DNA from: Vectrevirus LI10P3
Length of the DNA stretch: 44,918 bases
Reading direction: 5' to 3' (one strand)
Sequence record: OZ035798.1
The notes beneath the pieces were generated by a model that had not been told where the DNA came from, did no database searches, and was given only the letters and a program-made list of their open reading frames with translations. The position numbers and the translations under genes are program-made. Shown here piece by piece: positions 331 to 14,786 of this stretch. The number at the start of each line of letters is the position of its first letter. The first letter of the stretch is position 1.

Positions 331-774
331 ATGCATAGATGGTGTGAATCTCAAGGTTATACCATCTTACCTTCTGGTGTCATCCTTTCAAAGGGTGGCA
401 CCCCTCTCAAACCATTCAAGGCGGGTAGGGGTTATTTAGCAGTTAAAATTAAAAATAAAGAAGGTAAATGGCGTAATGTCTATGTTCATCAATTAGTGGC
501 TTATAAGTATTTACCTAAAACTAATAATGAAGTAAACCACAAAGACGGCGATAAGTACAACAATGATGTTAGCAACTTGGAGTGGGTAACAAGAAGCGAG
601 AATAACTATTTAAAATGCAATGGAAATGATAGGAGTGCCTTAAATAGCTATTTAGCAAGATTAAAAGATTGCTTCTTGCAAGGTAAGGGTGTAGCAGAAA
701 CCGCTAGACTTACTGGTAAAAGTGAACCAAGAGTTTCTTCTCTCTTTAAGGAGTGGCGAAATGGCAAAGGCTAG
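331..774 (+). CDS. HNH homing endonuclease
   Basis: ATG at 331 with GAGGAG RBS; motif VNHKDGDKYNNDVSNLEW; sits between the two terminase genes; paralogous to the ORF at 8285. Confidence 0.8.
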   Translation: MHRWCESQGYTILPSGVILSKGGTPLKPFKAGRGYLAVKIKNKEGKWRNVYVHQLVAYKYLPKTNNEVNHKDGDKYNNDVSNLEWVTRSENNYLKCNGNDRSALNSYLARLKDCFLQGKGVAETARLTGKSEPRVSSLFKEWRNGKG

Positions 775-2659
775 AGAATCACAGGCAGAGGCATTAAAGC
801 GGTGGGAAAACCTTAAAGAACTACAAGACACTTTTAAATATACAGCGGAAGGTTTGCTTCTCTTTGCAGATACAGTTATTCATAACTTAATTGCAGGCAA
901 CCCTCATCTGATTCGTATGCAGGCGGATATCTTGAAGTTCCTATTTTACGGACACAAGTACCGCCTCATCGAAGCGCCTCGTGGTATCGCTAAGACAACA
1001 CTATCAGCAATCTATACGGTATTCCGTATTATTCATGAACCGCATAAGCGTATCATGGTTGTGTCCCAAAACGCCAAGCGAGCAGAGGAAATCGCAGGTT
1101 GGGTAGTTAAAATCTTCCGTGGCTTAGACTTTCTTGAGTTTATGCTGCCGGATATCTACGCTGGGGACCGTGCATCCGTTAAGGCGTTTGAGATTCATTA
1201 CACCCTACGTGGTAGTGATAAGTCTCCTTCTGTATCCTGTTACTCAATCGAAGCAGGTATGCAGGGTGCTCGTGCTGATATTATTCTAGCGGATGACGTA
1301 GAGTCGATGCAGAATGCTCGTACGGCAGCGGGCCGTGCCTTGCTTGAGGAACTGACTAAGGAGTTTGAATCTATCAACCAGTTTGGGGATATCATTTACC
1401 TTGGTACACCTCAGAACGTAAACTCTATCTACAACAACCTACCTGCTCGTGGTTACTCTGTTCGTATCTGGACTGCGCGTTACCCTTCAGTAGAGCAAGA
1501 GCAATGTTATGGCGACTTCCTTGCACCTATGATTGTTCAAGATATGAAGGACAACCCAGCACTTCGCTCAGGGTACGGGTTGGATGGTAATAGTGGTGCA
1601 CCTTGTGCCCCTGAAATGTATGATGATGAAGTCCTGATTGAGAAGGAAATCTCTCAGGGTGCTGCTAAGTTCCAGCTTCAGTTCATGCTTAACACTCGCA
1701 TGATGGATGCTGACAGATACCCATTACGCCTGAACAATCTAATCTTCACCTCGTTTGGTACAGAGGAAGTCCCTGTGATGCCTACGTGGAGTAATGATTC
1801 CATAAACATCATTGGTGATGCACCTAAGTATGGTAACAAGCCTACGGATTTCATGTACAGACCTGTAGCTCGCCCATACGAATGGGGTGCTGTCTCCCGC
1901 AAGATTATGTATATTGACCCTGCGGGTGGTGGTAAGAACGGAGACGAGACGGGTGTAGCCATCGTATTCCTGCACGGCACATTCATTTATGTGTATCAGT
2001 GCTTTGGTGTACCTGGCGGATACCGAGAGTCGTCCCTGAATCGCATTGTGCAGGCCGCAAAGCAGGCGGGTGTTAAAGAGGTATTCATTGAGAAGAACTT
2101 TGGTCATGGCGCGTTTGAGGCGGTAATTAAGCCGTACTTTGAACGAGAGTGGCCTGTAACTCTGGAAGAGGATTACGCCACCGGACAGAAAGAGTTGCGT
2201 ATCATTGAGACGCTGGAGCCGCTCATGGCAGCCCATAGGCTTATCTTCAATGCAGAGATGGTGAAGTCAGACTTTGAGTCGGTACAGCACTATCCGCTTG
2301 AACTACGCATGTCCTACAGTCTTTTCAATCAAATGTCGAACATAACGATTGAGAAGAACAGCCTCCGGCACGATGACCGCCTAGACGCCCTGTATGGCGC
2401 TATACGGCAATTAACTTCTCAGATAGACTATGATGAGGTTACACGGATTAATCGCCTCAGAGCGCAGGAGATGCGCGATTACATCCATGCTATGAACACA
2501 CCTCATCTACGCAGGGCAATGCTATATGGAGATTACGGTACTGAGCGAAGAGTGACCAACACTTCCGTAGCGATGCAGCAGCGAGTTTACGGGCAGAACT
2601 ACCGAAATAAATCGGCAAGCAGAAATACACTTTCTGCAAGGATTTCAAGGACTTATTAA
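761..2659 (+). CDS. Terminase large subunit (gp19-like)
   Basis: 632 aa from ATG 761 (RBS AGGAGTGG); size and position fit a T7-like large terminase; 14 nt overlap with the HNH gene. Confidence 0.85.
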   Translation: MAKARESQAEALKRWENLKELQDTFKYTAEGLLLFADTVIHNLIAGNPHLIRMQADILKFLFYGHKYRLIEAPRGIAKTTLSAIYTVFRIIHEPHKRIMVVSQNAKRAEEIAGWVVKIFRGLDFLEFMLPDIYAGDRASVKAFEIHYTLRGSDKSPSVSCYSIEAGMQGARADIILADDVESMQNARTAAGRALLEELTKEFESINQFGDIIYLGTPQNVNSIYNNLPARGYSVRIWTARYPSVEQEQCYGDFLAPMIVQDMKDNPALRSGYGLDGNSGAPCAPEMYDDEVLIEKEISQGAAKFQLQFMLNTRMMDADRYPLRLNNLIFTSFGTEEVPVMPTWSNDSINIIGDAPKYGNKPTDFMYRPVARPYEWGAVSRKIMYIDPAGGGKNGDETGVAIVFLHGTFIYVYQCFGVPGGYRESSLNRIVQAAKQAGVKEVFIEKNFGHGAFEAVIKPYFEREWPVTLEEDYATGQKELRIIETLEPLMAAHRLIFNAEMVKSDFESVQHYPLELRMSYSLFNQMSNITIEKNSLRHDDRLDALYGAIRQLTSQIDYDEVTRINRLRAQEMRDYIHAMNTPHLRRAMLYGDYGTERRVTNTSVAMQQRVYGQNYRNKSASRNTLSARISRTY

Positions 2660-2680
2660 TTACTGGACACTATAGAAGGA
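2658..2680 (+). promoter_or_regulatory. Phage RNAP promoter
   Basis: AATTACTGGACACTATAGAAGGA, near-perfect consensus. Confidence 0.8.
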
Positions 2681-2749
2681 AGGCCCAGAGAATAAGAGAA
2701 ATAACAAGGATAATATAGTTAACCTAGGTTATATAGGTTACTATAGTAT

Positions 2750-2769
2750 GGGTGTACTCCTGTACACCC
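2750..2769 (+). promoter_or_regulatory. Leader stem-loop
   Basis: GGGTGTAC-tcct-GTACACCC, perfect 8 bp stem between the promoter and the gene at 2812. Confidence 0.3.
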
Positions 2770-2811
2770 TATTCCTACTTACTATTTACTTATATGTATA
2801 AGGAGTATTAG

Positions 2812-3093
2812 ATGGCTAATGATTATAGTGATCAACCTTTAACTGGTCGATATGACCGTAAGCAGATTACACCGACCAGTGAGGCATTAATGCTCCCTGT
2901 TGTTACAGAGGAGTCTATTACGAAGAAAGCCAATGTTATCAATGATGCAACCAAATCTGGTAAACAGAAAGCAGCAATGGTATGTCGTCCTGTAGGTGGC
3001 ACTCTTGAGATTGCCATTGCTACTGGTAGCAAAGAGGATGCAGATTGGTTGTCTGTTAAAATGGACAGCGTTGGTCTTATTACACCGGCTTAA
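2812..3093 (+). CDS. Hypothetical protein, paralog A of a tandem pair
   Basis: 93 aa; shares SGKQKxAMV and IAIAxGS blocks with the next ORF. Confidence 0.6.
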   Translation: MANDYSDQPLTGRYDRKQITPTSEALMLPVVTEESITKKANVINDATKSGKQKAAMVCRPVGGTLEIAIATGSKEDADWLSVKMDSVGLITPA

Positions 3094-3110
3094 TAAAAGG
3101 AGAAGATAAT

Positions 3111-3398
3111 ATGTCTAAGTATGGCGATGCAGGTACGACTACTGGTCAGGTTTTTCGTGTAAAAGCAGTACAAACTATTGCAACTGCAATTCCTATGCCT
3201 ATCGTGGCAGAAGCTGACCTTAAAAAGAAAGATCATCCAATTAATATTGAACACCTATCTGGTAAGCAGAAAGGTGCTATGGTGGTTGTAGATAAAGGAG
3301 ATAGCCTTTATATTGCTATTGCGCGTGGCTCTGCACCAACTGACAAGTGGGATGCAACTACTATGGAGGTGACACCTGTCACTCCAGAAGGGGATTAA
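3111..3398 (+). CDS. Hypothetical protein, paralog B of a tandem pair
   Basis: 95 aa; AGGAG-like RBS; same conserved blocks as 2812..3093. Confidence 0.6.
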   Translation: MSKYGDAGTTTGQVFRVKAVQTIATAIPMPIVAEADLKKKDHPINIEHLSGKQKGAMVVVDKGDSLYIAIARGSAPTDKWDATTMEVTPVTPEGD

Positions 3399-3400
3399 TA

Positions 3401-3745
3401 ATGCTTAACAAATACTTCAAGCGTAAAGAGTTCGCTTGCCGTTGTGGGTGCGGTACATCCACTGTTGATGCTGAATTACTACAGGTAGTCACAGATGTGC
3501 GTGAGCACTTTGGTTCTCCTGTAGTTATCACTTCGGGGCATCGCTGTGCTAAGCACAATGCTAATGTAGGAGGGGCTAAGAACTCCATGCATCTTACTGG
3601 TAAGGCTGCTGACATTAAGGTACGAGGTATCTTACCTTCTGATGTACATAAGTATCTTACTGATAAGTACCAAGGCAAATATGGGATTGGTAAGTATAAC
3701 TCCTTTACTCATATTGATGTACGCGACGGGTGTGCACGATGGTAG
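3401..3745 (+). CDS. Endolysin, zinc peptidase M15 family (L-Ala-D-Glu peptidase-like)
   Basis: ATG 3401; SxHxxGxAxD motif (SMHLTGKAAD) plus downstream FTHIDVRD, as in VanY/M15 peptidases; lies in the lysis cassette. Confidence 0.75.
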   Translation: MLNKYFKRKEFACRCGCGTSTVDAELLQVVTDVREHFGSPVVITSGHRCAKHNANVGGAKNSMHLTGKAADIKVRGILPSDVHKYLTDKYQGKYGIGKYNSFTHIDVRDGCARW

Positions 3746-3853: not shown

Positions 3854-4003
3854 ATGAAAAAGCTGTTCAAATCTAAGAAGGTTGTAGGTGCACTAGTTGC
3901 ATTGGCAATTGCTCTTGTTTCTGTAGGTCTTGGTGTAGACCTTGGCTCTGGCACGGAATCCTCTGTGACAGACGTGGTCTGCCAAGTGATCACCTGTGAA
4001 TAA
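3854..4003 (+). CDS. Small membrane or secreted protein (possible holin/antiholin)
   Basis: 49 aa; AGGGAG RBS; basic N-terminus then hydrophobic stretch VVGALVALAIALVSVGLGV. Confidence 0.4.
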   Translation: MKKLFKSKKVVGALVALAIALVSVGLGVDLGSGTESSVTDVVCQVITCE

Positions 4004-4217
4004 GTTTCTAGAAGTGCTGGCAGGTCTTATTGGCCTGCTTGTCTCTGCTAAGAAGAAACAAGAAGAGAAGGAGGCACAAAGTGAAGCGAATCATGTTAGT
4101 GACAATCCTGCTGATTGGTTCGCTGACCACTTCCGGGTGTCAGCAGGCGTTACCAGAGAAAGCAATGGTGAAACCTCTGAGGCCGACGCTGACGGAAGTT
4201 TACGAGGTAGACGATAA
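3996..4217 (+). CDS. Putative i-spanin (Rz-like), unusually short
   Basis: GTG start; N-terminal hydrophobic segment followed by charged KKKQEEKEAQ region; overlaps the lipoprotein ORF in another frame. Confidence 0.35.
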   Translation: MNKFLEVLAGLIGLLVSAKKKQEEKEAQSEANHVSDNPADWFADHFRVSAGVTRESNGETSEADADGSLRGRR

Positions 4218-4290
4218 GGTCTGCTTTAGTAAGCCTGACGCTACAAAATTAGGTTTGTATATTCTTTCGCTGGAACGCGGATATAATTAA
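4093..4290 (+). CDS. Putative o-spanin lipoprotein (Rz1-like)
   Basis: Signal-like N-terminus ending in lipobox-like LTTSGC, then Pro-rich segment; starts inside 3996..4217 and runs past its stop. Confidence 0.45.
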   Translation: MLVTILLIGSLTTSGCQQALPEKAMVKPLRPTLTEVYEVDDKVCFSKPDATKLGLYILSLERGYN

Positions 4291-4342: not shown

Positions 4343-4421
4343 GTAAGATAGCGCCGTTCTTTTGAGCGGCCTATTACTAGCCAATCTTCATAGGGAGGGT
4401 TGGAAAGTAATAGGAGATAGC

Positions 4422-6320
4422 ATGGCTAAATTAACCAAACCTAATACTGAAGGAATCTTGCATAAAGGACAATCTTTGTATGAGTACCTTGATGCGAGAG
4501 TTTTAACATCAAAGCCGTTTGGTGCTGTAGGTGACGCCACTACTGATGATACGGAGGTTATAGCTGCTTCATTAAACTCTCAGAAAGCTGTCACAATCTC
4601 AGACGGTGTATTCTCTAGCTCTGGTATTAATAGTAATTACTGTAACTTAGACGGTAGGGGTAGTGGGGTGCTAAGTCACCGTTCCAGTACAGGTAACTAC
4701 TTAGTATTTAACAACCCACGTACAGGTCGCTTAAGTAATATTACGGTAGAAAGTAATAAGGCGACTGATACAACTCAGGGACAGCAGGTATCTCTTGCTG
4801 GTGGAAGTGATGTTACTGTAAGTGACGTTAACTTCTCAAACGTTAAAGGTACTGGTTTCAGTTTAATCGCATACCCTAATGATGCGCCACCTGATGGACT
4901 TATGATTAAAGGCATTCGAGGTAGCTATTCAGGCTATGCTACTAATAAGGCAGCCGGATGCGTACTTGCTGACTCCTCAGTTAACTCCCTCATAGATAAC
5001 GTCATTGCTAAGAACTACCCTCAGTTCGGAGCAGTAGAGTTGAAAGGTACAGCCAGTTACAACATAGTCAGTAATGTTATAGGGGCAGATTGCCAGCATG
5101 TAACTTACAACGGCACTGAAGGGCCAATAGCTCCTTCTAATAACCTTATCAATGGGGTGATGGCTAATAACCCTAAGTATGCAGCGGTTGTTGCAGGCAA
5201 AGGAAGTACGAACTTAATCTCAGACGTGCTCGTAGATTACTCAACTTCTGATGCTAGGCAGGCTCATGGTGTTACAGTAGAGGGTTCTGATAACGTCATA
5301 AATAATGTGCTTATGTCAGGATGTGATGGTACTAACTCTTTAGGACAAGGGCAGACTGCTACAATTGCACGCTTTATAGGTACAGCTAATAACAACTATG
5401 CGTCTGTATTTCCTAGCTACAGTGCTACAGGTGTTATTACTTTCGAATCCGGCTCTACCCGTAACTTCGTAGAGGTAAAGCACCCTGGCAGGAGAAACGA
5501 CCTTCTCAGTTCTGCTAGTACTATTGACGGTGCAGCTACTATTGACGGCACTAGTAATAGTAACGTAGTGCACGCACCTGCCCTAGGGCAGTACATAGGT
5601 AGTATGTCAGGTAGGTTCGAATGGCGGATTAAGTCCATGTCACTCCCTTCAGGCGTTCTTACTTCTGCTGATAAGTACAGAATGCTTGGAGATGGTGCTG
5701 TGTCATTAGCTGTAGGTGGGGGCACTTCTTCTCAAGTTCGCCTATTTACTTCTGATGGTACTTCTCGGACAGTGTCCCTCACCAACGGTAACGTGCGTCT
5801 TTCTACCAGTAGCACAGGCTTTTTGCAGTTAGGTGCTGATGCAATGACCCCAGACAGTACTGGTACATACGCATTAGGTTCCGCCAGTCGAGCATGGTCT
5901 GGCGGTTTTACTCAAGCAGCATTCACTGTTACCTCAGATGCTCGGTGTAAAACAGAACCTCTTACTATCTCAGATGCCTTACTAGATGCTTGGTCTGAAG
6001 TTGACTTTGTGCAGTTTCAGTATTTGGATCGTGTTGAGGAGAAGGGTGCAGACTCAGCTAGATGGCACTTTGGCATCATCGCTCAGCGAGCTAAGGAGGC
6101 CTTCGAACGTCACGGTATAGATGCACATCGCTATGGCTTCTTGTGCTTCGACAGTTGGGATGATGTATACGAGGAAGATGCCAATGGCTCTCGTAAACTG
6201 ATTACACCAGCAGGTTCCCGCTACGGTATTCGTTACGAGGAAGTACTGATATTAGAGGCTGCGTTGATGCGGAGGACTATTAAGCGTATGCAGGAAGCAC
6301 TAGCTTCCCTGCCTAAGTAA
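4422..6320 (+). CDS. Tailspike 1: beta-helix depolymerase with C-terminal intramolecular chaperone (S74-like) domain
   Basis: ATG 4422; N-terminal FGAVGDATTDDTEV pectate-lyase-like motif; Ser/Thr/Gly/Asn-rich core; C-terminal ~128 aa starting at SDARCK (nt 5934). Confidence 0.85.
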   Translation: MAKLTKPNTEGILHKGQSLYEYLDARVLTSKPFGAVGDATTDDTEVIAASLNSQKAVTISDGVFSSSGINSNYCNLDGRGSGVLSHRSSTGNYLVFNNPRTGRLSNITVESNKATDTTQGQQVSLAGGSDVTVSDVNFSNVKGTGFSLIAYPNDAPPDGLMIKGIRGSYSGYATNKAAGCVLADSSVNSLIDNVIAKNYPQFGAVELKGTASYNIVSNVIGADCQHVTYNGTEGPIAPSNNLINGVMANNPKYAAVVAGKGSTNLISDVLVDYSTSDARQAHGVTVEGSDNVINNVLMSGCDGTNSLGQGQTATIARFIGTANNNYASVFPSYSATGVITFESGSTRNFVEVKHPGRRNDLLSSASTIDGAATIDGTSNSNVVHAPALGQYIGSMSGRFEWRIKSMSLPSGVLTSADKYRMLGDGAVSLAVGGGTSSQVRLFTSDGTSRTVSLTNGNVRLSTSSTGFLQLGADAMTPDSTGTYALGSASRAWSGGFTQAAFTVTSDARCKTEPLTISDALLDAWSEVDFVQFQYLDRVEEKGADSARWHFGIIAQRAKEAFERHGIDAHRYGFLCFDSWDDVYEEDANGSRKLITPAGSRYGIRYEEVLILEAALMRRTIKRMQEALASLPK

Positions 6321-6327
6321 GCAACAG

Positions 6328-6350
6328 GCAGTGCGTAAGCACTGCTTTTC
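6328..6350 (+). terminator. Stem-loop with T-run after tailspike 1
   Basis: GCAGTGC-gtaa-GCACTGC followed by TTTT. Confidence 0.5.
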
Positions 6351-6405
6351 ACGCAACTTTTCTTAAAGGTTATCATGGTGGTAGCCTTTCAGAAGAGGAG
6401 GTTAC

Positions 6406-8118
6406 ATGCTTCAAAGATTAAGTGCTTACTTGGTGAAGTACAAGAGTAAACTAACAGGTACTATTGAGCGCCTGCTATCTGATAAACTATCGGATACAAT
6501 AGATGTTGCGGATTTTGGAGTTACTCCATCTTCCAATGACAACAGGCAAGCACTTCAAGCTGCGTTCAATGCAGTCAGAGTGTTAGGCGGTGGCACTGTA
6601 TTAGTCACTAAAGCTGGAAAATACAAACTCAGTGGTACTGTTGAGATATTTGCTAATACACACTTCAAGGTTGCTAAAGGTGTAACATTTGTACGTGACT
6701 ACGAAACAGGAGATACGCTATTCAGATTATCACAAGGGCAAGCTAGTAATGTAACAGTCAGTGGAGGTATCTATGAAGGCAATGGTCACACTAAGGGAGA
6801 TACACCTTTTGTAGTATTTGCATCTACTAGTAATAATGATTTGAAGTTTGAAGGCATAACAGTTAACAATGTAGTGGACTACCACGCCATAGATTTAGCA
6901 GATTGGAACAACGTAGTTATTCGTGATTGTAAATTCCTAGGTTTTAAGAATACAGGCAGTCGTAACTTCTCAGAGGCTATACAGTTAGACCCAGGTCTTA
7001 TTACAGTTGGTCACTATGTACAGTCAAGTGGTATGCTGGTGGAGAATTGCTATGCTGGTCCAAACACAGAATCAGGGTTTGGAGGTTATGGTGCACTAAT
7101 TGGAAATCACGCCTCAGCTTACGGTGTACAGGACAACAATATCCGTATCTTGAATTGCACTACAGATGGTGCTCTCTTTGCAGGTGTACGTGTATTTAAC
7201 TGGAAAAACTGGACAGTGCGTGGTTGCACATTTAGGAACTCTAATGCAAGAGGTGTCCATGTTACACCTTTCTCATCTCAGACTAAACCGCAGGGTACTC
7301 GACAAGGTAGTATTGTAGATTGCACTTTTGATGGCGTAAGGACACCAGTGCTAATTGCTGCACCATCTTGGCCTTTTACCGATATTAGTGACATTTGGCA
7401 TGACCATATTGAAATTTCTAATAATACTATGATCCTCACAGAGGATGTATCCTATGGTGTAGATGCAAGGTGGTGTAAGAATTTAATTGTAAAAGGTAAT
7501 ACAGGCTCTGGTGGCTTAGGGTTAATAGGTTTACGCTTTGGGACAAAATACCACATCGAAGGTAATACTTGGGAAAACGGAAGAGGTAGTGGGATTTGGC
7601 TAGGTGAGTCTGATGCTACTACATTCATTGGTACTGGTTTATCAGGAGAAGGTATACTTAGTCGTAATATCTTCTCTAAATTAGGGCAATATGGTATTCA
7701 TGTAAACTGCAAGGCTAGCGGTCTAGTGATTAAAGCCAATAATATGAAGGAGGTATCTACAGATGAAGCAGGTAGGCACTTCATTAGTATAGACACAGGG
7801 GCTAACAACATCCTAGTAGAAGGTAATATTGGAGTAGATGGAGAAAGCCCTAACAAGCCAAGCCTTGGTATTCGTGTTACTTCTTCTTGTTCCAATATTA
7901 AACTCATTGGCAATGATTGCTATGGCACACAGGCGCCTCAGAATAACCAAGGAGTCGGTTCTAGTACGGTGATTGTTTATGGACTAAATGGCAACCCTAC
8001 AACTTTAGGCGTAGGTGCACCTGTAGGCTCTTTAGCAACTGATATCAATGGTTCTGGTGGTAGTACATTGTACGTTAAAGAATCTGGTACATCTGCTCAA
8101 GGTTGGGTTGCAAAGTAG
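6406..8118 (+). CDS. Tailspike 2: pectate-lyase-superfamily beta-helix depolymerase
   Basis: 570 aa; GAGGAGG RBS; N-terminal DVADFGVTPSSNDNRQALQAAFNA motif; repetitive Gly/Asn-rich beta-helix-like sequence. Confidence 0.8.
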   Translation: MLQRLSAYLVKYKSKLTGTIERLLSDKLSDTIDVADFGVTPSSNDNRQALQAAFNAVRVLGGGTVLVTKAGKYKLSGTVEIFANTHFKVAKGVTFVRDYETGDTLFRLSQGQASNVTVSGGIYEGNGHTKGDTPFVVFASTSNNDLKFEGITVNNVVDYHAIDLADWNNVVIRDCKFLGFKNTGSRNFSEAIQLDPGLITVGHYVQSSGMLVENCYAGPNTESGFGGYGALIGNHASAYGVQDNNIRILNCTTDGALFAGVRVFNWKNWTVRGCTFRNSNARGVHVTPFSSQTKPQGTRQGSIVDCTFDGVRTPVLIAAPSWPFTDISDIWHDHIEISNNTMILTEDVSYGVDARWCKNLIVKGNTGSGGLGLIGLRFGTKYHIEGNTWENGRGSGIWLGESDATTFIGTGLSGEGILSRNIFSKLGQYGIHVNCKASGLVIKANNMKEVSTDEAGRHFISIDTGANNILVEGNIGVDGESPNKPSLGIRVTSSCSNIKLIGNDCYGTQAPQNNQGVGSSTVIVYGLNGNPTTLGVGAPVGSLATDINGSGGSTLYVKESGTSAQGWVAK

Positions 8119-8129
8119 TAGGAAGTTGA

Positions 8130-8273
8130 ATGCCATTAATCAAATCAGTTAAGCAAAGTGCTGTACGCCAGAACACAGAAGAGCTTATTCAATCAGGACG
8201 TGACCCTAAGCAAGCTTATGCCATTGCCAAGGATGTTCAACGTCGTGCCTTGAAGAAACCTTCTGCATCTTAA
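8130..8273 (+). CDS. Small basic hypothetical protein (47 aa)
   Basis: AGGAAG RBS; compact ORF filling the gap before the HNH gene. Confidence 0.35.
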   Translation: MPLIKSVKQSAVRQNTEELIQSGRDPKQAYAIAKDVQRRALKKPSAS

Positions 8274-8284
8274 AGGAGATTGAT

Positions 8285-8659
8285 ATGGAAACGTGGGTAA
8301 CTGTCCCTGGCTACCCACGGTATCAAGTGTCTACTCATGGATGTGTCAAATCACTCATTGGTAATCACAAGATACTGAAGCCGGGCAAGTCAAAGAGTGG
8401 GTATTTGAACGTAGTTCTTAGTAATGAGGAAGGCAAGAAGACATTCCGTGTGCATCGCTTGGTTGCACTGTGTCATTTGCCTAATCCTCATAATCTTCCC
8501 TTAGTGAACCACAAGGATGAAGACAAGGCACATAATCATGTAGACAATTTAGAGTGGTGTACTGAAGAGTACAATCTCAAGTATTCACGTGACTACGATA
8601 GGTCTTCTCTTAGTGTAACCCAAGGACAGAAGAAGGTATGGCTTCCAGTAGACCTGTAA
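8285..8659 (+). CDS. HNH homing endonuclease (NUMOD4-like N-terminus)
   Basis: AAGGAG RBS; WVTVPGYPRYQVSTHGCV then VNHKDEDKAHNHVDNLEW; paralog of 331..774. Confidence 0.8.
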   Translation: METWVTVPGYPRYQVSTHGCVKSLIGNHKILKPGKSKSGYLNVVLSNEEGKKTFRVHRLVALCHLPNPHNLPLVNHKDEDKAHNHVDNLEWCTEEYNLKYSRDYDRSSLSVTQGQKKVWLPVDL

Positions 8660-8699
8660 CATTCAGGTAACAAAGTCAAAATTTTGATATAGGCGTGTG

Positions 8700-8860
8700 T
8701 CAGCTCTCTCGCCCTCGCCCTCGCCGGATTTCCCCCATATAGGGCCGCGCTGCGGTTGGCTTGGGAATTGGGCTGGGCTGGTCCGTCTTCAACCTGCTGC
8801 CGCAGGAAGCTCGACGGGTGGCCTAGGGCTTGCCGAGGTCTGCTCTTAGTGGCTGCACAA
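8700..8860 (+). other. GC-rich non-coding block, probable genome-terminus / terminal-repeat region
   Basis: Composition differs sharply from the rest of the window; no ORF on either strand; lies between the last late gene and the first early gene. Confidence 0.35.
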
Positions 8861-9039
8861 GGAGAACTCCTAGGAAGCGCTAGGGTACGCCTTAGTATTG
8901 GACAAGGTGATTGCCTTAGTTCAACCGCTTAGGGCTTACACGGGCCGTTTTAGGGCCATTCCTGAGCGTTTGACAGGGTGTGAGGGCGTGGACTATCTGT
9001 TCGTTTCGTTCACTCCGCTTGCGCTACGTTCACTCGCTC

Positions 9040-9180
9040 ACGTGTACCTTAGGTTATTCCTTGATGGATAGCTTAGGTTAGCCTTAGTGGATTACCTTAG
9101 TTAAAGCCTTAGTGCTTCACTTAGTATCCGCTTAGTAGTGTACCTTAGTAAGTCTTAGTGTCTTCTCTTAGTGATTGCAC
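9040..9180 (+). repeat. Array of short direct repeats, CTTAGT(G/A), at least 10 copies
   Basis: Irregularly spaced CCTTAGT/CTTAGTG copies; extra copies at 8845-8925 and 9316-9500; analogous to the heptamer arrays next to T7 terminal repeats. Confidence 0.6.
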
Positions 9181-9369
9181 ATGCAAGCATGTAAGATGCC
9201 ATTAGGTCGCGGTCGGTAGACCGCTAAAGAAGAAGTATAGTAATAAGATGCAGTAGGAGGAACACCAGAAACCTAGCCAACCTAGCCTATCCTAGCTCTG
9301 CATCTATTGCTTTTCCTTAGTCTCACATGTTAGACAACCTATCTTATTCTTAGTGATGATAACTTAGTG

Positions 9370-9398
9370 TTGACAAGATAATCTTAGTGTAATACTAT
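9370..9398 (+). promoter_or_regulatory. Candidate host sigma70 early promoter
   Basis: TTGACA, 17 nt spacer, TACTAT. Confidence 0.4.
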
Positions 9399-9470
9399 GC
9401 ATCACGTAGGCGGTGCTGAGGCACCTAGTAGCCAGCTAGTAAGGCATACGAAGAGACTAGCGCTTACATT

Positions 9471-9483
9471 GCTCTTTAACAAT
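9471..9483 (+). promoter_or_regulatory. boxA-like antitermination element, copy 1
   Basis: GCTCTTTAACAAT, identical to the rrn-type boxA core; ~66 nt downstream of the candidate promoter. Confidence 0.5.
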
Positions 9484-9541
9484 TTGCTTAGTGTAACCTA
9501 TGTATGCCGTGGTCAATTACTTATTGAATGAGGGATTAACT

Positions 9542-9721
9542 ATGACATTAAACAACCGTGAACTATCCGTTCTCTTCACTCTGTTGTGCTACATGATTCG
9601 TAAAAACGAATTGCTTACAGATGACGAGTTAGCCTTGTATCACCGCTTTCTTAACGAAGGTTGGACCGATACAGTTAATCAATACCGTAACATGATAGAT
9701 GAGTTGAGGGAGGGTAAATAA
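9542..9721 (+). CDS. Early hypothetical protein (59 aa)
   Basis: GAGGGA RBS; first ORF after the terminus region. Confidence 0.55.
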   Translation: MTLNNRELSVLFTLLCYMIRKNELLTDDELALYHRFLNEGWTDTVNQYRNMIDELREGK

Positions 9722-9945
9722 TGTATCAGCATGAGGTTTTCTTTGAGTCAGCTAGTGAAGCTATCCGCTTCCTTGAAGATATGCTACAAGCTGGCGTAGG
9801 TGTTGATGTACATCACTTCCTACTAGATTACGACACTGAATATCACCGAGTTACCTTAGTATCTGAGTATGACAACCAAGTCATTACTGAGTACCTAGGC
9901 AGTGAAGATTACGATTATGATGAAGTAATCACGACAAATCTCTAA
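9721..9945 (+). CDS. Early acidic hypothetical protein (74 aa)
   Basis: GAGGGAGGG RBS; very Asp/Glu/Tyr-rich C-terminal half. Confidence 0.6.
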   Translation: MYQHEVFFESASEAIRFLEDMLQAGVGVDVHHFLLDYDTEYHRVTLVSEYDNQVITEYLGSEDYDYDEVITTNL

Positions 9946-9953
9946 ATTAACTG

Positions 9954-9982
9954 TTGACAGCCACGGCATACAAGGCTACATT
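9954..9982 (+). promoter_or_regulatory. Candidate host sigma70 early promoter
   Basis: TTGACA, 17 nt spacer, TACATT. Confidence 0.45.
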
Positions 9983-10015
9983 AAGCATCAAGACGGCGAC
10001 GTCTTTAAACATCCC

Positions 10016-10028
10016 GCTCTTTAACAAT
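10016..10028 (+). promoter_or_regulatory. boxA-like antitermination element, copy 2
   Basis: cGCTCTTTAACAAT, ~27 nt downstream of the predicted start site of the promoter at 9954. Confidence 0.5.
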
Positions 10029-10227
10029 ACGGTTTGTGTCTTGATAGGCTAACTAACTAACTAAGGTAATTATCATGAAAGGTTTAATTTGTGTAGAACG
10101 TATGGTCAATGGTAAACTTGAAATATTACCACTGGAAAACCAATCTAGCTTCAAAGAGTGGTATGGCTGTTTCTCACTTATTTAAGGTAAAGGCTGGCAC
10201 TAGTCAGCCTATCAAGGCGCAAACCAA

Positions 10228-10240
10228 GCTCTTTAACAAT
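10228..10240 (+). promoter_or_regulatory. boxA-like antitermination element, copy 3
   Basis: GCTCTTTAACAAT, ~100 nt upstream of the ocr start codon. Confidence 0.5.
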
Positions 10241-10336
10241 TTGGATGGTAGCTTCTTAGTCTGGATAGGTTAAACCTAGGGGACTCTCTTGAGTCTCCTA
10301 TAATGTAACCTAACTAACTAAATGAGGATTAATAAC

Positions 10337-10690
10337 ATGGCTATGTCTAATATGACTTACTCTCAGGTTTACAACACCGCTCATGCTGCATTAGTTGAAC
10401 GTATCTGGAATGATGATATTGATTGTATCGATAACGCACATGATGCAATCCATGAGGTAGCGGACAGTGCTGTACCAATCTATTATGCTGACATCTTCTC
10501 AGTAATGGCGAGTGAGGGTATTGATCACTTCTTCGAAGACTCCGGCCTGATGCCAGATACTAAGGATGTAACGGTCGTACTACAAGCCCGTATTTATGAA
10601 CAACTCACCATTGATTTATGGGAACGTGTTCAAGATATGATTGTTGCGTACACCACTTACGCTGAGTATTCAGAAGAAGAGGAGGAATAA
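10337..10690 (+). CDS. ocr: Ocr (gp0.3-like) DNA-mimic anti-restriction protein
   Basis: MAMSNMTY...[19 protein letters not shown]...[13 protein letters not shown]...[15 protein letters not shown]...EEEEE closely matches recalled T7 Ocr; 117 aa, highly acidic. Confidence 0.85.
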
Positions 10691-10795
10691 GATGGAAAAG
10701 CTATACAACTTCATCTTTTCAGACGGTGTAACCCTGAAGTGTTCCCTGCGTTTCGCACAAATTCGTGAGGAAGTACTAGGCACTACATACAAACT

Positions 10796-10818
10796 ATTTA
10801 GCTGACACTATAAGAGAA
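10796..10818 (+). promoter_or_regulatory. Phage RNAP promoter variant
   Basis: ATTTAGCTGACACTATAAGAGAAGG. Confidence 0.5.
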
Positions 10819-10880
10819 GGCTTAACAAGGCGTTACTAAGGTAGCGCCTGATTAAACTTTCACTTACTAGGAGTAAGACT

Positions 10881-11108
10881 ATGGATTTAGATAGCATCAT
10901 TATGGCATTTGCTCTTATTGGCTTAAGCTGGTGCTCCTATCACCTTTACCGTGAGTTCTTATTTGATAAAGCTAAACGCAAACTAAGAAAGGAAGGCGGT
11001 AATTACCTTTGTGTAAGAGATGGGCTTGTAGAATACATTGCACCTAACGGCACGGAATGCGCCATTAGCAAAGATGCATTTATAGAAACGTGGCATTACA
11101 TCAAGTAA
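10881..11108 (+). CDS. Early small membrane protein (75 aa)
   Basis: AGGAG RBS; N-terminal hydrophobic segment IIMAFALIGLSWCSY. Confidence 0.55.
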   Translation: MDLDSIIMAFALIGLSWCSYHLYREFLFDKAKRKLRKEGGNYLCVRDGLVEYIAPNGTECAISKDAFIETWHYIK

Positions 11109-11171
11109 CTAGCCTATAGCCTACCTGAGTGGGCTATGTGATATTTACTTACACTATATAAGGTGACTATT

Positions 11172-12095
11172 ATGACTACTGAAAACACCCTCCTGTCTGT
11201 TCGTGAAGCTGCAACCGCTGAGATCAAGCAACACTTAGACAATATCGGCACTTCTTACATCAAAGTTGGCGCTTGTCTTAATGAGTTACGCGGTGACTTT
11301 GAAGGTCAAAAAGACTTTTTGGCTTATGTAGAATCAGAATTTGGAATCAAGAAAGCACAATGCTACAAGCTGATGAGTGTAGCCCGTGTCTTTGAAGGAG
11401 ACGAACGCTTTAAAGGTGTGGCTATGCGTGTAATGCTGGCGCTTGTTCCTTTCGCTGATGAAAATATAATCATGGAGAAGGCCGCAGAACTCGCCGCAGA
11501 GGGCAAGCTGGACACTAACGCCGTAAACGCCCTGATTGATCCTAAGAAAGAGACAAAGGCCGAGACGGTACAATCTAAGGTTGAGTCGGTAAAACCGCAG
11601 GAGAACGCGACTGAGGCCGCAGAAACTATGCAAGGACATGCAACCTTTGAGGATTTCATCTTAGAGAAGGCGAAAGAGGATTTACAAAGTGTGCCGCCAG
11701 TAAGTGAGTCGGGTAACGACGAATCCGCACCGTGGGAAGATGAAAGCAAGCCGGAAGACACAAAGGCAGCGCCACGGGATAACACGGCTAATACTGAGAA
11801 TGCCGCTATTGCTGGTCTGCTGGCACAAATTAAAGCACTGACTGAGCAATTACAGGCAGCTAATGACCGCATTGCCTCCTTAAGCAGCGCACGCGAAAGC
11901 AAGAAAGCAGCCGCGCCTATGCTGCCGCAATTCAAATCTTCCTGCTTCTATGCTCGCTTAGGTTTAAGCGCTGAGGAGGCAACGAAGAAAACAGCAGTTA
12001 ACAAGGCACGCCGCGAACTGGTTAAGCTAGGCTACGGCGAAGGCCATGAAGCATGGCCCTTAATCTCTGAGGCAGTAGAAGAATTAACTAAGTAA
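11172..12095 (+). CDS. Early hypothetical protein with predicted N-terminal helical domain and Ala/Glu/Lys-rich C-terminal region
   Basis: 307 aa from ATG 11172; low-complexity charged middle and C-terminal heptad-like region; occupies the slot of T7 gene 0.7 but shows no kinase motifs. Confidence 0.6.
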   Translation: MTTENTLLSVREAATAEIKQHLDNIGTSYIKVGACLNELRGDFEGQKDFLAYVESEFGIKKAQCYKLMSVARVFEGDERFKGVAMRVMLALVPFADENIIMEKAAELAAEGKLDTNAVNALIDPKKETKAETVQSKVESVKPQENATEAAETMQGHATFEDFILEKAKEDLQSVPPVSESGNDESAPWEDESKPEDTKAAPRDNTANTENAAIAGLLAQIKALTEQLQAANDRIASLSSARESKKAAAPMLPQFKSSCFYARLGLSAEEATKKTAVNKARRELVKLGYGEGHEAWPLISEAVEELTK

Positions 12096-12158
12096 CCCTA
12101 TCGGTGGCATCTTATTAGGTGTCACCTATTAAGGTTTCTTTCACTAGGAGTAAACAAG

Positions 12159-14786
12159 ATGCAAGACCTACACGCTATTCAACTTCAACTTGAAGAAGAA
12201 ATGTTTAACGGCGGTATCCGTCGCTTTGAAGCGGACCAACAACGCCAGATTGCATCCGGTAATGAATCAGACACGGCATGGAATCGCCGCTTATTGTCCG
12301 AGTTAATCGCGCCAATGGCTGAAGGTATTCAGGCTTATAAGGAAGAGTACGAAGGCAAGCGCGGTCGTGCACCACGTGCATTGGCTTTCATTAACTGCGT
12401 AGAAAATGAAGTGGCAGCGTATATCACGATGAAGATCGTAATGGATATGCTTAACACTGATGTAACCTTGCAAGCTATCGCTATGAATGTAGCTGACCGC
12501 ATTGAGGACCAAGTGCGCTTCAGTAAACTAGAAGGCCATGCAGCTAAATATTTTGAGAAGGTCAAGAAGTCACTTAAGGCAAGTAAGACTAAATCATATC
12601 GCCATGCGCACAACGTAGCGGTCGTGGCTGAGAAGTCAGTAGCTGACCGTGACGCTGATTTCTCTCGCTGGGAAGCGTGGCCTAAAGATACCTTGCTACA
12701 AATTGGGATGACCTTGCTTGAAATCTTAGAGAATAGCGTATTCTTCAACGGGCAACCTGTCTTCCTCCGCACCTTGCGCACTAATGGCGGCAAACATGGT
12801 GTTTACTACCTACAGACTAGCGAACACGTGGGTGAATGGATAACTGCATTTAAAGAGCACGTAGCTCAGCTGAGTCCAGCCTATGCGCCTTGCGTGATTC
12901 CTCCTCGTCCGTGGGTGTCACCTTTTAATGGCGGTTTTCACACTGAGAAGGTGGCAAGCCGTATTCGTCTGGTTAAAGGTAACCGCGAGCACGTCCGCAA
13001 GCTGACCAAAAAGCAAATGCCAGCGGTTTACAAGGCTGTTAACGCCTTACAAGCTACTAAGTGGCAGGTTAACAAGGAAGTATTGCAGGTAGTAGAAGAT
13101 GTTATTCGTCTAGACCTCGGTTATGGTGTACCTTCCTTTAAGCCGCTCATTGACCGCGAGAACAAACCAGCTAACCCTGTTCCTCTTGAGTTCCAGCACC
13201 TGCGAGGCCGTGAATTGAAAGAGATGCTAACACCGGAGCAATGGCAGGCCTTCATCAACTGGAAGGGTGAATGTACTAAGCTGTATACCGCTGAGACTAA
13301 GCGCGGCAGCAAGTCGGCGGCGACCGTCCGCATGGTAGGACAGGCCCGTAAATACAGCCAGTTTGACGCTATTTATTTTGTATATGCACTGGACAGCCGT
13401 TCACGCGTTTATGCGCAATCTAGCACGCTCTCGCCGCAATCAAACGACTTAGGCAAGGCATTGCTCCGTTTTACCGAAGGGCAGCGTCTTGATAGCGCTG
13501 AGGCGCTTAAGTGGTTTTTGGTGAACGGGGCGAATAACTGGGGTTGGGATAAGAAAACTTTTGACGTGCGCACCTCTAACGTGCTGGATGGCGAATTTCA
13601 AGACATGTGCCGCGACATTGCAGCCGATCCGCTGACCTTCACTCAATGGGTAAATGCCGACTCCCCTTACGGCTTCCTTGCATGGTGCTTTGAATATGCG
13701 CGTTATCTGGATGCACTGGATGAAGGCACGCAAGACCAATTCATGACGCATCTACCCGTCCATCAAGACGGTAGTTGCTCTGGTATCCAGCACTATAGCG
13801 CGATGTTACGCGATGAAGTAGGTGCGAAAGCAGTAAACCTTAAGCCCTCTGACTCTCCTCAAGATATTTATGGTGCCGTTGCGCAGGTAGTAATTCAGAA
13901 GAACTATGCATACATGAATGCAGAGGATGCGGAAACCTTCACTTCTGGCAGCGTGACTTTAACAGGTGCGGAGCTGCGTAGTATGGCTAGTGCGTGGGAT
14001 ATGATAGGAATCACTCGCGGCCTGACCAAAAAGCCCGTAATGACACTACCTTATGGCAGCACACGTCTAACCTGCCGTGAGTCAGTGATTGATTATATCG
14101 TTGATTTAGAAGAAAAAGAGGCCCAACGGGCTATTGCGGAAGGGCGTACCGCCAATCCTGTACACCCTTTTGATAATGACCGTAAGGACAGCCTGACACC
14201 TAGCGCAGCTTATAACTATATGACAGCTTTAATCTGGCCTTCTATTTCGGAAGTGGTTAAAGCTCCTATAGTGGCAATGAAAATGATTCGTCAGCTTGCA
14301 CGTTTCGCAGCTAAAAGGAATGAAGGCTTAGAGTACACCTTGCCTACTGGCTTCATCTTGCAACAAAAGATAATGGCGACAGATATGCTCCGCGTATCTA
14401 CTTGCTTGATGGGAGAAATCAAGATGAGTCTACAGATTGAAACGGACGTAGTGGATGAAACGGCTATGATGGGCGCTGCTGCCCCTAACTTTGTGCACGG
14501 TCATGATGCCAGTCACCTTATCTTAACGGTCTGCGACCTTGTTGATAAAGGGATTACATCTATCGCAGTAATTCATGATTCTTTTGGCACTCATGCAGGT
14601 CGCACCGCAGACCTACGTGATAGTCTAAGGGCAGAAATGGTGAAGATGTATCAAGGCCGTAACGCTCTGCAAAGCCTGTTAGATGAGCATGAAGAACGCT
14701 GGTTAGTAGACACCGGAATCCAAGTGCCAGAGCAAGGAGAGTTTGACCTTAACGAAATCTTAGTATCTGACTATTGCTTCGCATAA
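12159..14786 (+). CDS. Single-subunit DNA-dependent RNA polymerase (T7/SP6 gene 1-like)
   Basis: 875 aa; [52 protein letters not shown] and HDSFGTHAG motifs; C-terminal ...CFA. Confidence 0.95.

Follow-up and report, generated by a model that had tools for sequence, protein, structure and literature searches.

The window, the whole stretch of DNA analysed here, is the 44,918-nucleotide sequence of Vectrevirus LI10P3 (OZ035798.1), a circularly permuted genome of SP6/K1E type. The region studied matches Escherichia phage EC120 (Vectrevirus, Molineuxvirinae, Autographiviridae) with 99.9% identity, and K1E-, K1-5- and SP6-like phages match it at 78-99% identity. Two small adjacent genes, ORF1 and ORF2, separate the large terminase gene from that of an M15 endolysin, as had been described from the sequence in an earlier note (Table 1). 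The endolysin gene directly follows ORF2 in the same transcription unit and starts 2 nt after the ORF2 stop codon. Between 2679 and 4327 there is no promoter match and no convincing terminator; a generic scan for sigma-70 promoters and terminators was uninformative.

Table 1. Genes and signals at the ORF1/ORF2 locus, in window coordinates.
Feature	Position	Strand	Details
Large terminase (TerL)	761-2659	+	Upstream flank of the pair
SP6/K1E-type phage RNA polymerase promoter, AATTACTGGACACTATAGAAGG	2658-2679	+	Overlaps the terminase stop codon
First leader hairpin	2710-2749	+	AU-rich, imperfect; weaker call; predicted in the MFE and centroid folds of 2676-2830
Second leader hairpin, GGGTGTAC-TCCT-GTACACCC	2750-2769	+	Perfect 8-bp GC-rich stem; -14.3 kcal/mol, z=-3.75
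ORF1 ribosome-binding site, AAGGAG	2800-2805	+	6 nt 5' of ATG; read from the sequence
ORF1, 93 aa	2812-3093	+	One domain of ~85 aa; K1E/K1-5 gp41, SP6 gp42 type, 'MANxYS...TGR/K'
ORF2 ribosome-binding site, AAGGAG	3097-3102	+	8 nt 5' of ATG; read from the sequence
ORF2, 95 aa	3111-3398	+	One domain of ~85 aa; K1E/K1-5 gp42, SP6 gp43 type, 'MxKYG...TGQxFRxK'
M15 peptidase endolysin	3401-3745	+	Pfam PF08291 (Peptidase_M15_3), 3.1e-33; PHROG lysis families
Holin	3854-4003	+	PHROG; followed by spanin genes
Next phage promoter	4327		Downstream of the lysis genes
Tailspike genes	4362-6320		Close downstream of the pair and the lysis genes

Upstream of the locus, an HNH homing-endonuclease gene (331-774, plus strand) lies between TerS and TerL in the window phage and in EC120. 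LL11 has no HNH gene, and its TerS directly abuts TerL. A promoter-like site with one mismatch to the consensus (128-142) is present inside the TerS gene (30-329), just upstream of the HNH gene. Downstream, a candidate i-spanin gene (3996-4217, plus strand; phrog_9219, 'unknown function') overlaps, out of frame, the gene for an Rz1-like o-spanin (4030-4290, plus strand; phrog_8971). The 49-aa gene product assigned as a holin by the PHROGs is called a candidate i-spanin in the LL11 record, and lysis-gene annotations are inconsistent across this phage group.

ORF1 and ORF2 are paralogs. BLASTP aligns them with 33 identities in 83 positions (40%, E=8e-13), and the alignment covers the blocks from which their relationship had first been proposed (SGKQKAAMV/SGKQKGAMV and LEIAIATGS/LYIAIARGS). 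The similarity is significant, with a Smith-Waterman score of 115 compared to 27.2 +/- 5.0 (maximum 52) for 2000 shuffles (z=17.6). Both proteins match phrog_2725 (PHROG 2725; ORF1 E=8.5e-37, ORF2 E=6.8e-45) and a profile built from 110 diverse family members (1e-28 and 6.6e-34, respectively), and a six-frame scan of the window with the 110-member profile found no third copy of the domain. Values of dN/dS relative to LL11 are ~0.27 for ORF1 and ~0.23 for ORF2, which indicates that both code for proteins under purifying selection.

The pair's orthologs are labelled 'acetyl-CoA acetyltransferase' in RefSeq, in PHROG 2725, in the SP6 record (AY288927, genes 42/43) and in many deposited records, a name that has been propagated, and 'hypothetical protein' in other records. 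Assignment as an acetyl-CoA acetyltransferase (thiolase) was rejected on size, since these proteins have 93-95 residues compared to ~390 for the enzyme. Neither ORF matches Pfam at E<=1 or any PDB sequence, and the one NCBIfam match is sub-threshold and unrelated. With a single cysteine in ORF1 and none in ORF2, the proteins cannot contain the catalytic Cys/His/Cys set. The Pfam, NCBIfam and PDB sequence searches of each ORF returned nothing useful, and neither protein has a signal peptide, a membrane segment or an enzymatic motif of a known kind.

The phage promoter reported earlier upstream of the pair was recovered, its core GGACACTATAGAAGG matching exactly at 2665-2679. The window contains 13 matches to the core (12 on the plus strand), compared to 1.24 expected by chance. 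The core at the pair is identical to the one before the major capsid gene (32374), and the pair's promoter is conserved in LL11, Phi100-A and SP6. By analogy with the SP6 promoter, transcription would start at G2675. The capsid-identical core, together with the strong AAGGAG sites in front of both genes, would fit high late expression of the pair.

The transcript leader is predicted to form two hairpins, of which the second is the perfect 8-bp structure also seen in the earlier note. The sequence of the first is partly conserved in LL11 and SP6. An 8-bp hairpin occupies the position of the second in the leaders of SP6 (AY288927 about 2117-2135; stem GGGAGGTA/TACCTCCC), Klebsiella phage PA45-9 (about 2837-2856; stem GGGTACTC/GAGTACCC) and Erwinia phage Era103 (about 4894-4913; stem ATCCCCTC/GAGGGGAT). 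The stem sequences are wholly different in the four lineages while position and strength are kept, which indicates that the hairpin structure is conserved by compensatory change. This conservation suggests a selected RNA structure, which may stabilise the 5' end, mark a site of processing or cause pausing; no Rfam family matches the leader. Record MK373771 annotates a 'terminator' at the leader hairpin.

The window pair corresponds to genes 41/42 of K1E and K1-5 and to genes 42/43 of SP6. Searches with tblastn located the family at 355 places in 192 phage records, mostly two per genome, and the phages are all T7-supergroup podophages of ~43-47 kb with hosts in Escherichia, Salmonella, Klebsiella, Proteus, Pectobacterium, Erwinia, Vibrio, Aeromonas and Pseudomonas. 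The tandem order TerL, pair, lysis genes also occurs in LL11, SP6, PA45-9, Era103, Vc1, Tola and EC120. ORF1-type and ORF2-type sequences form two lineages, each conserved in its own right, and the duplication is therefore ancient. By its distribution the pair is a conserved hallmark of the SP6/K1E-like phage group, so the suggestion that a local duplication here is unusual for these phages does not hold. The pair is already known as conserved and annotated, and the RefSeq record of LL11 already notes 'most likely a duplication region'.

Between two and four separate genes occupy the locus in different phages. SP6 has three cassette genes (42/43/44), the third being truncated; Pectobacterium phages PP1/POP72 and Raoultella phage P3a have three each, and Klebsiella phage PA45-9 has four, of 88, 88, 178 and 238 aa. 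The truncated SP6 gene 44 (AY288927 2798-3043, 81 aa) is a third copy of the 'TGQRS' type, which elsewhere has a C-terminal extension. The adjacent gene 45 (3066-3233, 55 aa) may be a remnant of the lost extension, and the two together resemble a decayed third cassette gene. Phages SHAK7163 and SHAK7704 (OR594179, OR594181) have an extra gene after the ORF2 ortholog that starts with the family domain; they share ~90% nucleotide identity with the window phage over the region, and cassette size thus varies within the genus.

Vibrio phage Vc1 (NC_047746) is filed under Drexlerviridae (siphoviruses), a taxonomy line that looks wrong; its late genes run tail fibre, holin, TerS, TerL, cassette, which is an order of T7/SP6 type. 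A chromosomal relative was found in Aeromonas bestiarum (JAOPLV010000005), where one 87-aa family gene (10001-10264) lies in an island of ~8 kb (5858-13596) that encodes an integrase, a resolvase, HNH proteins and a pRha-type regulator and has no recognisable structural genes. Several Aeromonas genomes carry similar copies, and the island may be a satellite-like or defective element. An 85-aa gene upstream of the Aeromonas homolog was considered as a paralog and rejected. Word-indexed homolog searches returned close relatives only, even with a profile of 110 sequences.

Identity between the window phage and LL11 is 98% for TerL and 96% for the endolysin, compared to 63% for ORF1 and 72% for ORF2. 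The corresponding dS values are 0.12, 0.45, 1.07 and 0.74, those of ORF1 and ORF2 being six to nine times that of TerL and about twice that of the endolysin. The pair is much more diverged than its flanks, which indicates that the cassette has a different history from them. On these values the cassette is a mosaic segment, exchanged horizontally within otherwise near-identical genomes. It behaves as an exchangeable module, like the tailspikes, yet under purifying selection, and a divergence this high relative to the flanks is typical of exchangeable surface modules. A 95-aa protein (P0102) combines an ORF1-type N-terminal half with an ORF2-type C-terminal half, as if recombined at the SGKQKGAMV block. 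Its gene directly follows TerL in two independent metagenome assemblies (L019 1632-1919, L020 1023-1310); both contigs end ~45 nt downstream, so that replacement of the pair and an assembly artefact are both possible.

To describe the wider family, a 40-member profile was compared with 1.84 billion representative proteins, which gave 230 representatives at E<=1e-3, and domain copies were re-called on the best 144 of these matches. Among the 144 proteins, 101 have a single copy (85 bare, and 16 with a C-terminal extension of at least 40 aa) and 36 have three. The other seven were called as two-copy proteins. Most of these have the same length as three-copy proteins, and six have a C-terminal remainder of ~91-98 aa (197 aa in P0260), so a diverged third copy is probable in six of the seven. 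On this count about 42 of the 43 multi-copy proteins have three copies (36 clear and 6 probable). None of the 144 has four or more copies, and none has an N-terminal extension of at least 40 aa, which places the domain always at the N-terminus.

Three-copy genes occur directly 3' of a T7-type TerL (PF22530) on metagenomic podophage contigs, the same locus as that of the window pair, and on one contig the three-copy gene is followed by a further copy with a glycine linker. In tblastn searches the three-copy protein aligns collinearly over the tandem genes of vectreviruses; repeats 1-3 have no clear position-specific orthology to ORF1 and ORF2. By the gene-fusion argument, the fused chains indicate that the separately encoded proteins act together and that the functional unit is three domains.

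Near-invariant positions of the domain are G12, N44, S49, G50, K51, G54, A70, G72, W79 and P92 (ORF1 numbering). The module of ~85 residues is predicted to be a small beta-barrel preceded by an extended N-terminal arm, and TG, P, N, SGK.xGA, A.G and W are conserved in it. Structure prediction, which had been proposed earlier as a check on the pair, was weak for ORF1 alone and confident for a three-copy relative. The AlphaFold model of ORF1 (pLDDT 66.8) shows a small sheet and little definition in the N-terminal arm, and was left out of the fold search because of its low confidence. The AF2 model of the three-copy protein, made with 28 homologs, reached a pLDDT of 87.4 and a pTM of 0.80, the latter indicating that the three units have a fixed mutual arrangement. 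From the pTM and the copy number we infer pseudo-three-fold packing of the units. Foldseek found nothing in the PDB below E=2, no PDB sequence matches the family profile, and BFVD returned only uncharacterised family members.

The extended relatives provide a lead to function. P0303 has a C-terminal Phage_head_fibr domain (Pfam PF11133, 5.2e-6, above the curated cut-off), and P0318, of the Era103 gp48 type, matches a PHROG head-fibre family (phrog_4366, 1.4e-10). Within Era103 gp48, residues 87-115 match the first part of the phi29 gp8.5 shaft (117-145, E=9e-6), and the C-terminus matches the tip of gp8.5. Gene 63 of Aeromonas phage Tola, deposited as 'head fiber protein' (PMC9145550), encodes the family domain (E=3.9e-21) followed by an alanine-rich fibre tail, and is adjoined by a bare copy. 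Other relatives carry additions of other kinds: Hoc-like decoration families match the Ig I-set domain added in P0258 (2.4e-23), the 178-aa protein of PA45-9 joins an Ig I-set domain of this kind to the family domain, and P0245 and P0299 have an Sf6-type needle knob (PF16532, 1.7e-30 and 5e-43). In the 238-aa protein of PA45-9 the C-terminal domain is beta-rich, and among its tblastn matches are phage genes annotated 'tail needle knob'. Scans of viral contigs with P0173, P0174, P0245 and alignment A3 gave knob-only matches or no conserved stretches, and the domain context was not found in them.

Judged by these matches, the C-terminal extensions of the relatives are all surface-display or fibre modules. 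The domain precedes them in the chain and therefore occupies the position of the virion-attachment base in a fibre. Tail fibres can carry shaft, Ig and knob modules as well, so these support the virion surface in general and not the capsid in particular. The earlier note had seen no assignable function for the pair. No experimental assignment exists, and in that respect the statement stands; the domain fusions and three-copy chains do, however, give a lead that can be tested.

Comparison with known systems places the window pair closest to its direct orthologs, K1E/K1-5 gp41-gp42 and SP6 gp42-gp43 ('ACLAME 971'), which have the same lineages, locus, promoter and hairpin leader and show no difference in kind. 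The likeness to phi29 gp8.5 (PF11133) lies in the gp8.5-like shaft that extended relatives have C-terminal to the domain, which gives the domain the place held in gp8.5 by the capsid-binding base, and it would extend to the implied three-fold stoichiometry. The gp8.5 base, however, is not homologous to the family domain (hhalign probability 0.5%); the window ORFs have no shaft and no Pfam match, the match being confined to the C-terminal part of extended relatives; and the gp8.5 gene adjoins the capsid gene, whereas the window pair follows the terminase.

The closest conceptual parallel is found in PhiM1, an Autographiviridae-type podophage with bare and extended copies, as in the family. Its gp44 and gp43 are decoration proteins with a common capsid-binding motif, one bare and one with a fibrous arm; they are separately expressed and occupy different quasi-equivalent capsid sites, as alpha-helical dimers at two-fold axes (PMC11440229). 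In contrast, members of the family are predicted to be rich in beta structure and to work in threes, and have no sequence or fold relation to the PhiM1 proteins. Lambda gpD, T4 Soc, phage L Dec and T4 Hoc, which are trimeric or displayed decoration proteins of capsids, are small, late, abundant accessory proteins of the dispensable type, and some family relatives carry Ig domains like those of Hoc. The family does not share the fold of known decoration proteins (gpD/beta-tulip, Soc, the OB-fold of Dec, the Ig fold of Hoc, or the alpha-claw). Its resemblance to SH3/PUA/KOW/Tudor-like beta-barrels is a generic one of fold, with scores below the usual significance and no sequence relation.

The explanation that we prefer is that ORF1 and ORF2 are abundant late virion-surface proteins which act in threes as a decoration or a fibre base, most probably on the capsid; we judge this about equally likely to be right or wrong. 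Under this explanation they are the two 'naked' members of a conserved post-terminase cassette of SP6-like and related T7-supergroup podophages, and the module they share would be a base that assembles in threes. They would form homo- or hetero-trimers, many of which would sit on the outer face of the virion, the likeliest sites being three-fold or quasi-three-fold positions on its T=7 capsid. There they would serve as a decoration or as the base of a head fibre from which the fibre is absent. The leader hairpin would probably stabilise or process an abundant late transcript shared with the lysis genes. More tentatively, and with somewhat less expectation that it will hold, the family as a whole may be an unrecognised, widespread virion decoration or head-fibre base with a fold absent from the PDB, a three-unit anchor that serves as a platform for plug-in Ig, knob and fibre domains. 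It would then be specific to SP6-like and allied T7-supergroup podophages, among them the therapeutic phages K1E, K1-5 and SP6, and be encoded either by two to four tandem genes or by one three-repeat chain.

Several observations count against a surface protein. The pair is far from the head genes and heads the lysis transcription unit, the Aeromonas chromosomal copy is in an integrase/resolvase/HNH island without structural genes, and the fused repeats are not position-orthologous to ORF1 and ORF2. No virion proteomics, cryo-EM or other high-resolution structure of any phage bearing the family, and no functional study of these genes, was found in the literature searched. To our knowledge, capsid decoration was not reported in the older low-resolution reconstructions of K1E, K1-5 and SP6.

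The strongest rival is a non-structural late pair that is oligomeric, forms no part of the particle and acts as a lysis-timing regulator, a packaging or maturation helper, or a factor directed at the host or its defences. Such a role would fit a pair that stands between the terminase gene and the endolysin, holin and spanin genes and shares a transcript with these lysis genes, and it would fit the non-structural surroundings of the Aeromonas copy. No report of either protein in virions was found in the literature searched, and the best fold neighbours are SH3/PUA/KOW/Tudor-like barrels, often binders of nucleic acids or peptides. It would leave unexplained, however, the C-terminal fibre shafts, Ig/Hoc-like domains and receptor-type knobs of the relatives, as well as the strict N-terminal position of the domain and the three-copy fusions, and the proteins lack a signal peptide, a membrane segment and any known enzymatic motif. 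We consider it unlikely, though it keeps appreciable weight. Placing the same trimeric module on the tail, as a small accessory or fibre base at the adaptor, nozzle or tailspike hub, has in its favour the relatives with an Sf6-type tail-needle knob, the tailspike genes close downstream (4362-6320), BFVD neighbours that include proteins named 'tail fiber protein' and an SGNH-esterase fusion (weak E-values), and an Ig domain that also matches major-tail-protein PHROGs. A tail site seems improbable all the same, because the tailspike adaptor of the SP6/K1E group is already known (the product of a tail-fibre-like gene located upstream of that for the terminase), all relatives that bear a name are of head-fibre type, and a promoter core shared with the capsid gene suggests many copies per virion.

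Two further readings carry very little weight. The tandem arrangement and the apparently truncated third copy in SP6 (gene 44) could be taken as signs of a recent, local and functionless duplication with one copy decaying, or of chance ORFs. Retention of both lineages across genera, paralogs only 40% identical, dN/dS of 0.23-0.27 and consensus ribosome-binding sites on both ORFs make this highly improbable. That ORF1 and ORF2 are thiolases, which nothing but the database label favours and which size, absent homology and missing catalytic residues contradict, has practically no chance of being correct.

In the sources searched we found no function for the family, no mention of the fused three-copy form and no link to fibre, Ig or knob modules. 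Phages of the SP6, K1E and K1-5 types are therapy candidates, engineering chassis and sources of RNA polymerases, and in hundreds of records a wrong enzyme label stands on two late genes that, by sequence, have a strong promoter. If the proteins prove to lie outside the virion, the three-copy and display-type fusions will need another explanation. If the trimeric surface anchor is true, the annotation would be corrected, the variable cassette beside the tailspikes would be explained, and the family would constitute a new structural family within a known kind, that of decorations or fibre bases. The anchor would then also offer a natural display site for foreign domains, one to which nature already fuses Ig, knob and fibre modules C-terminally.
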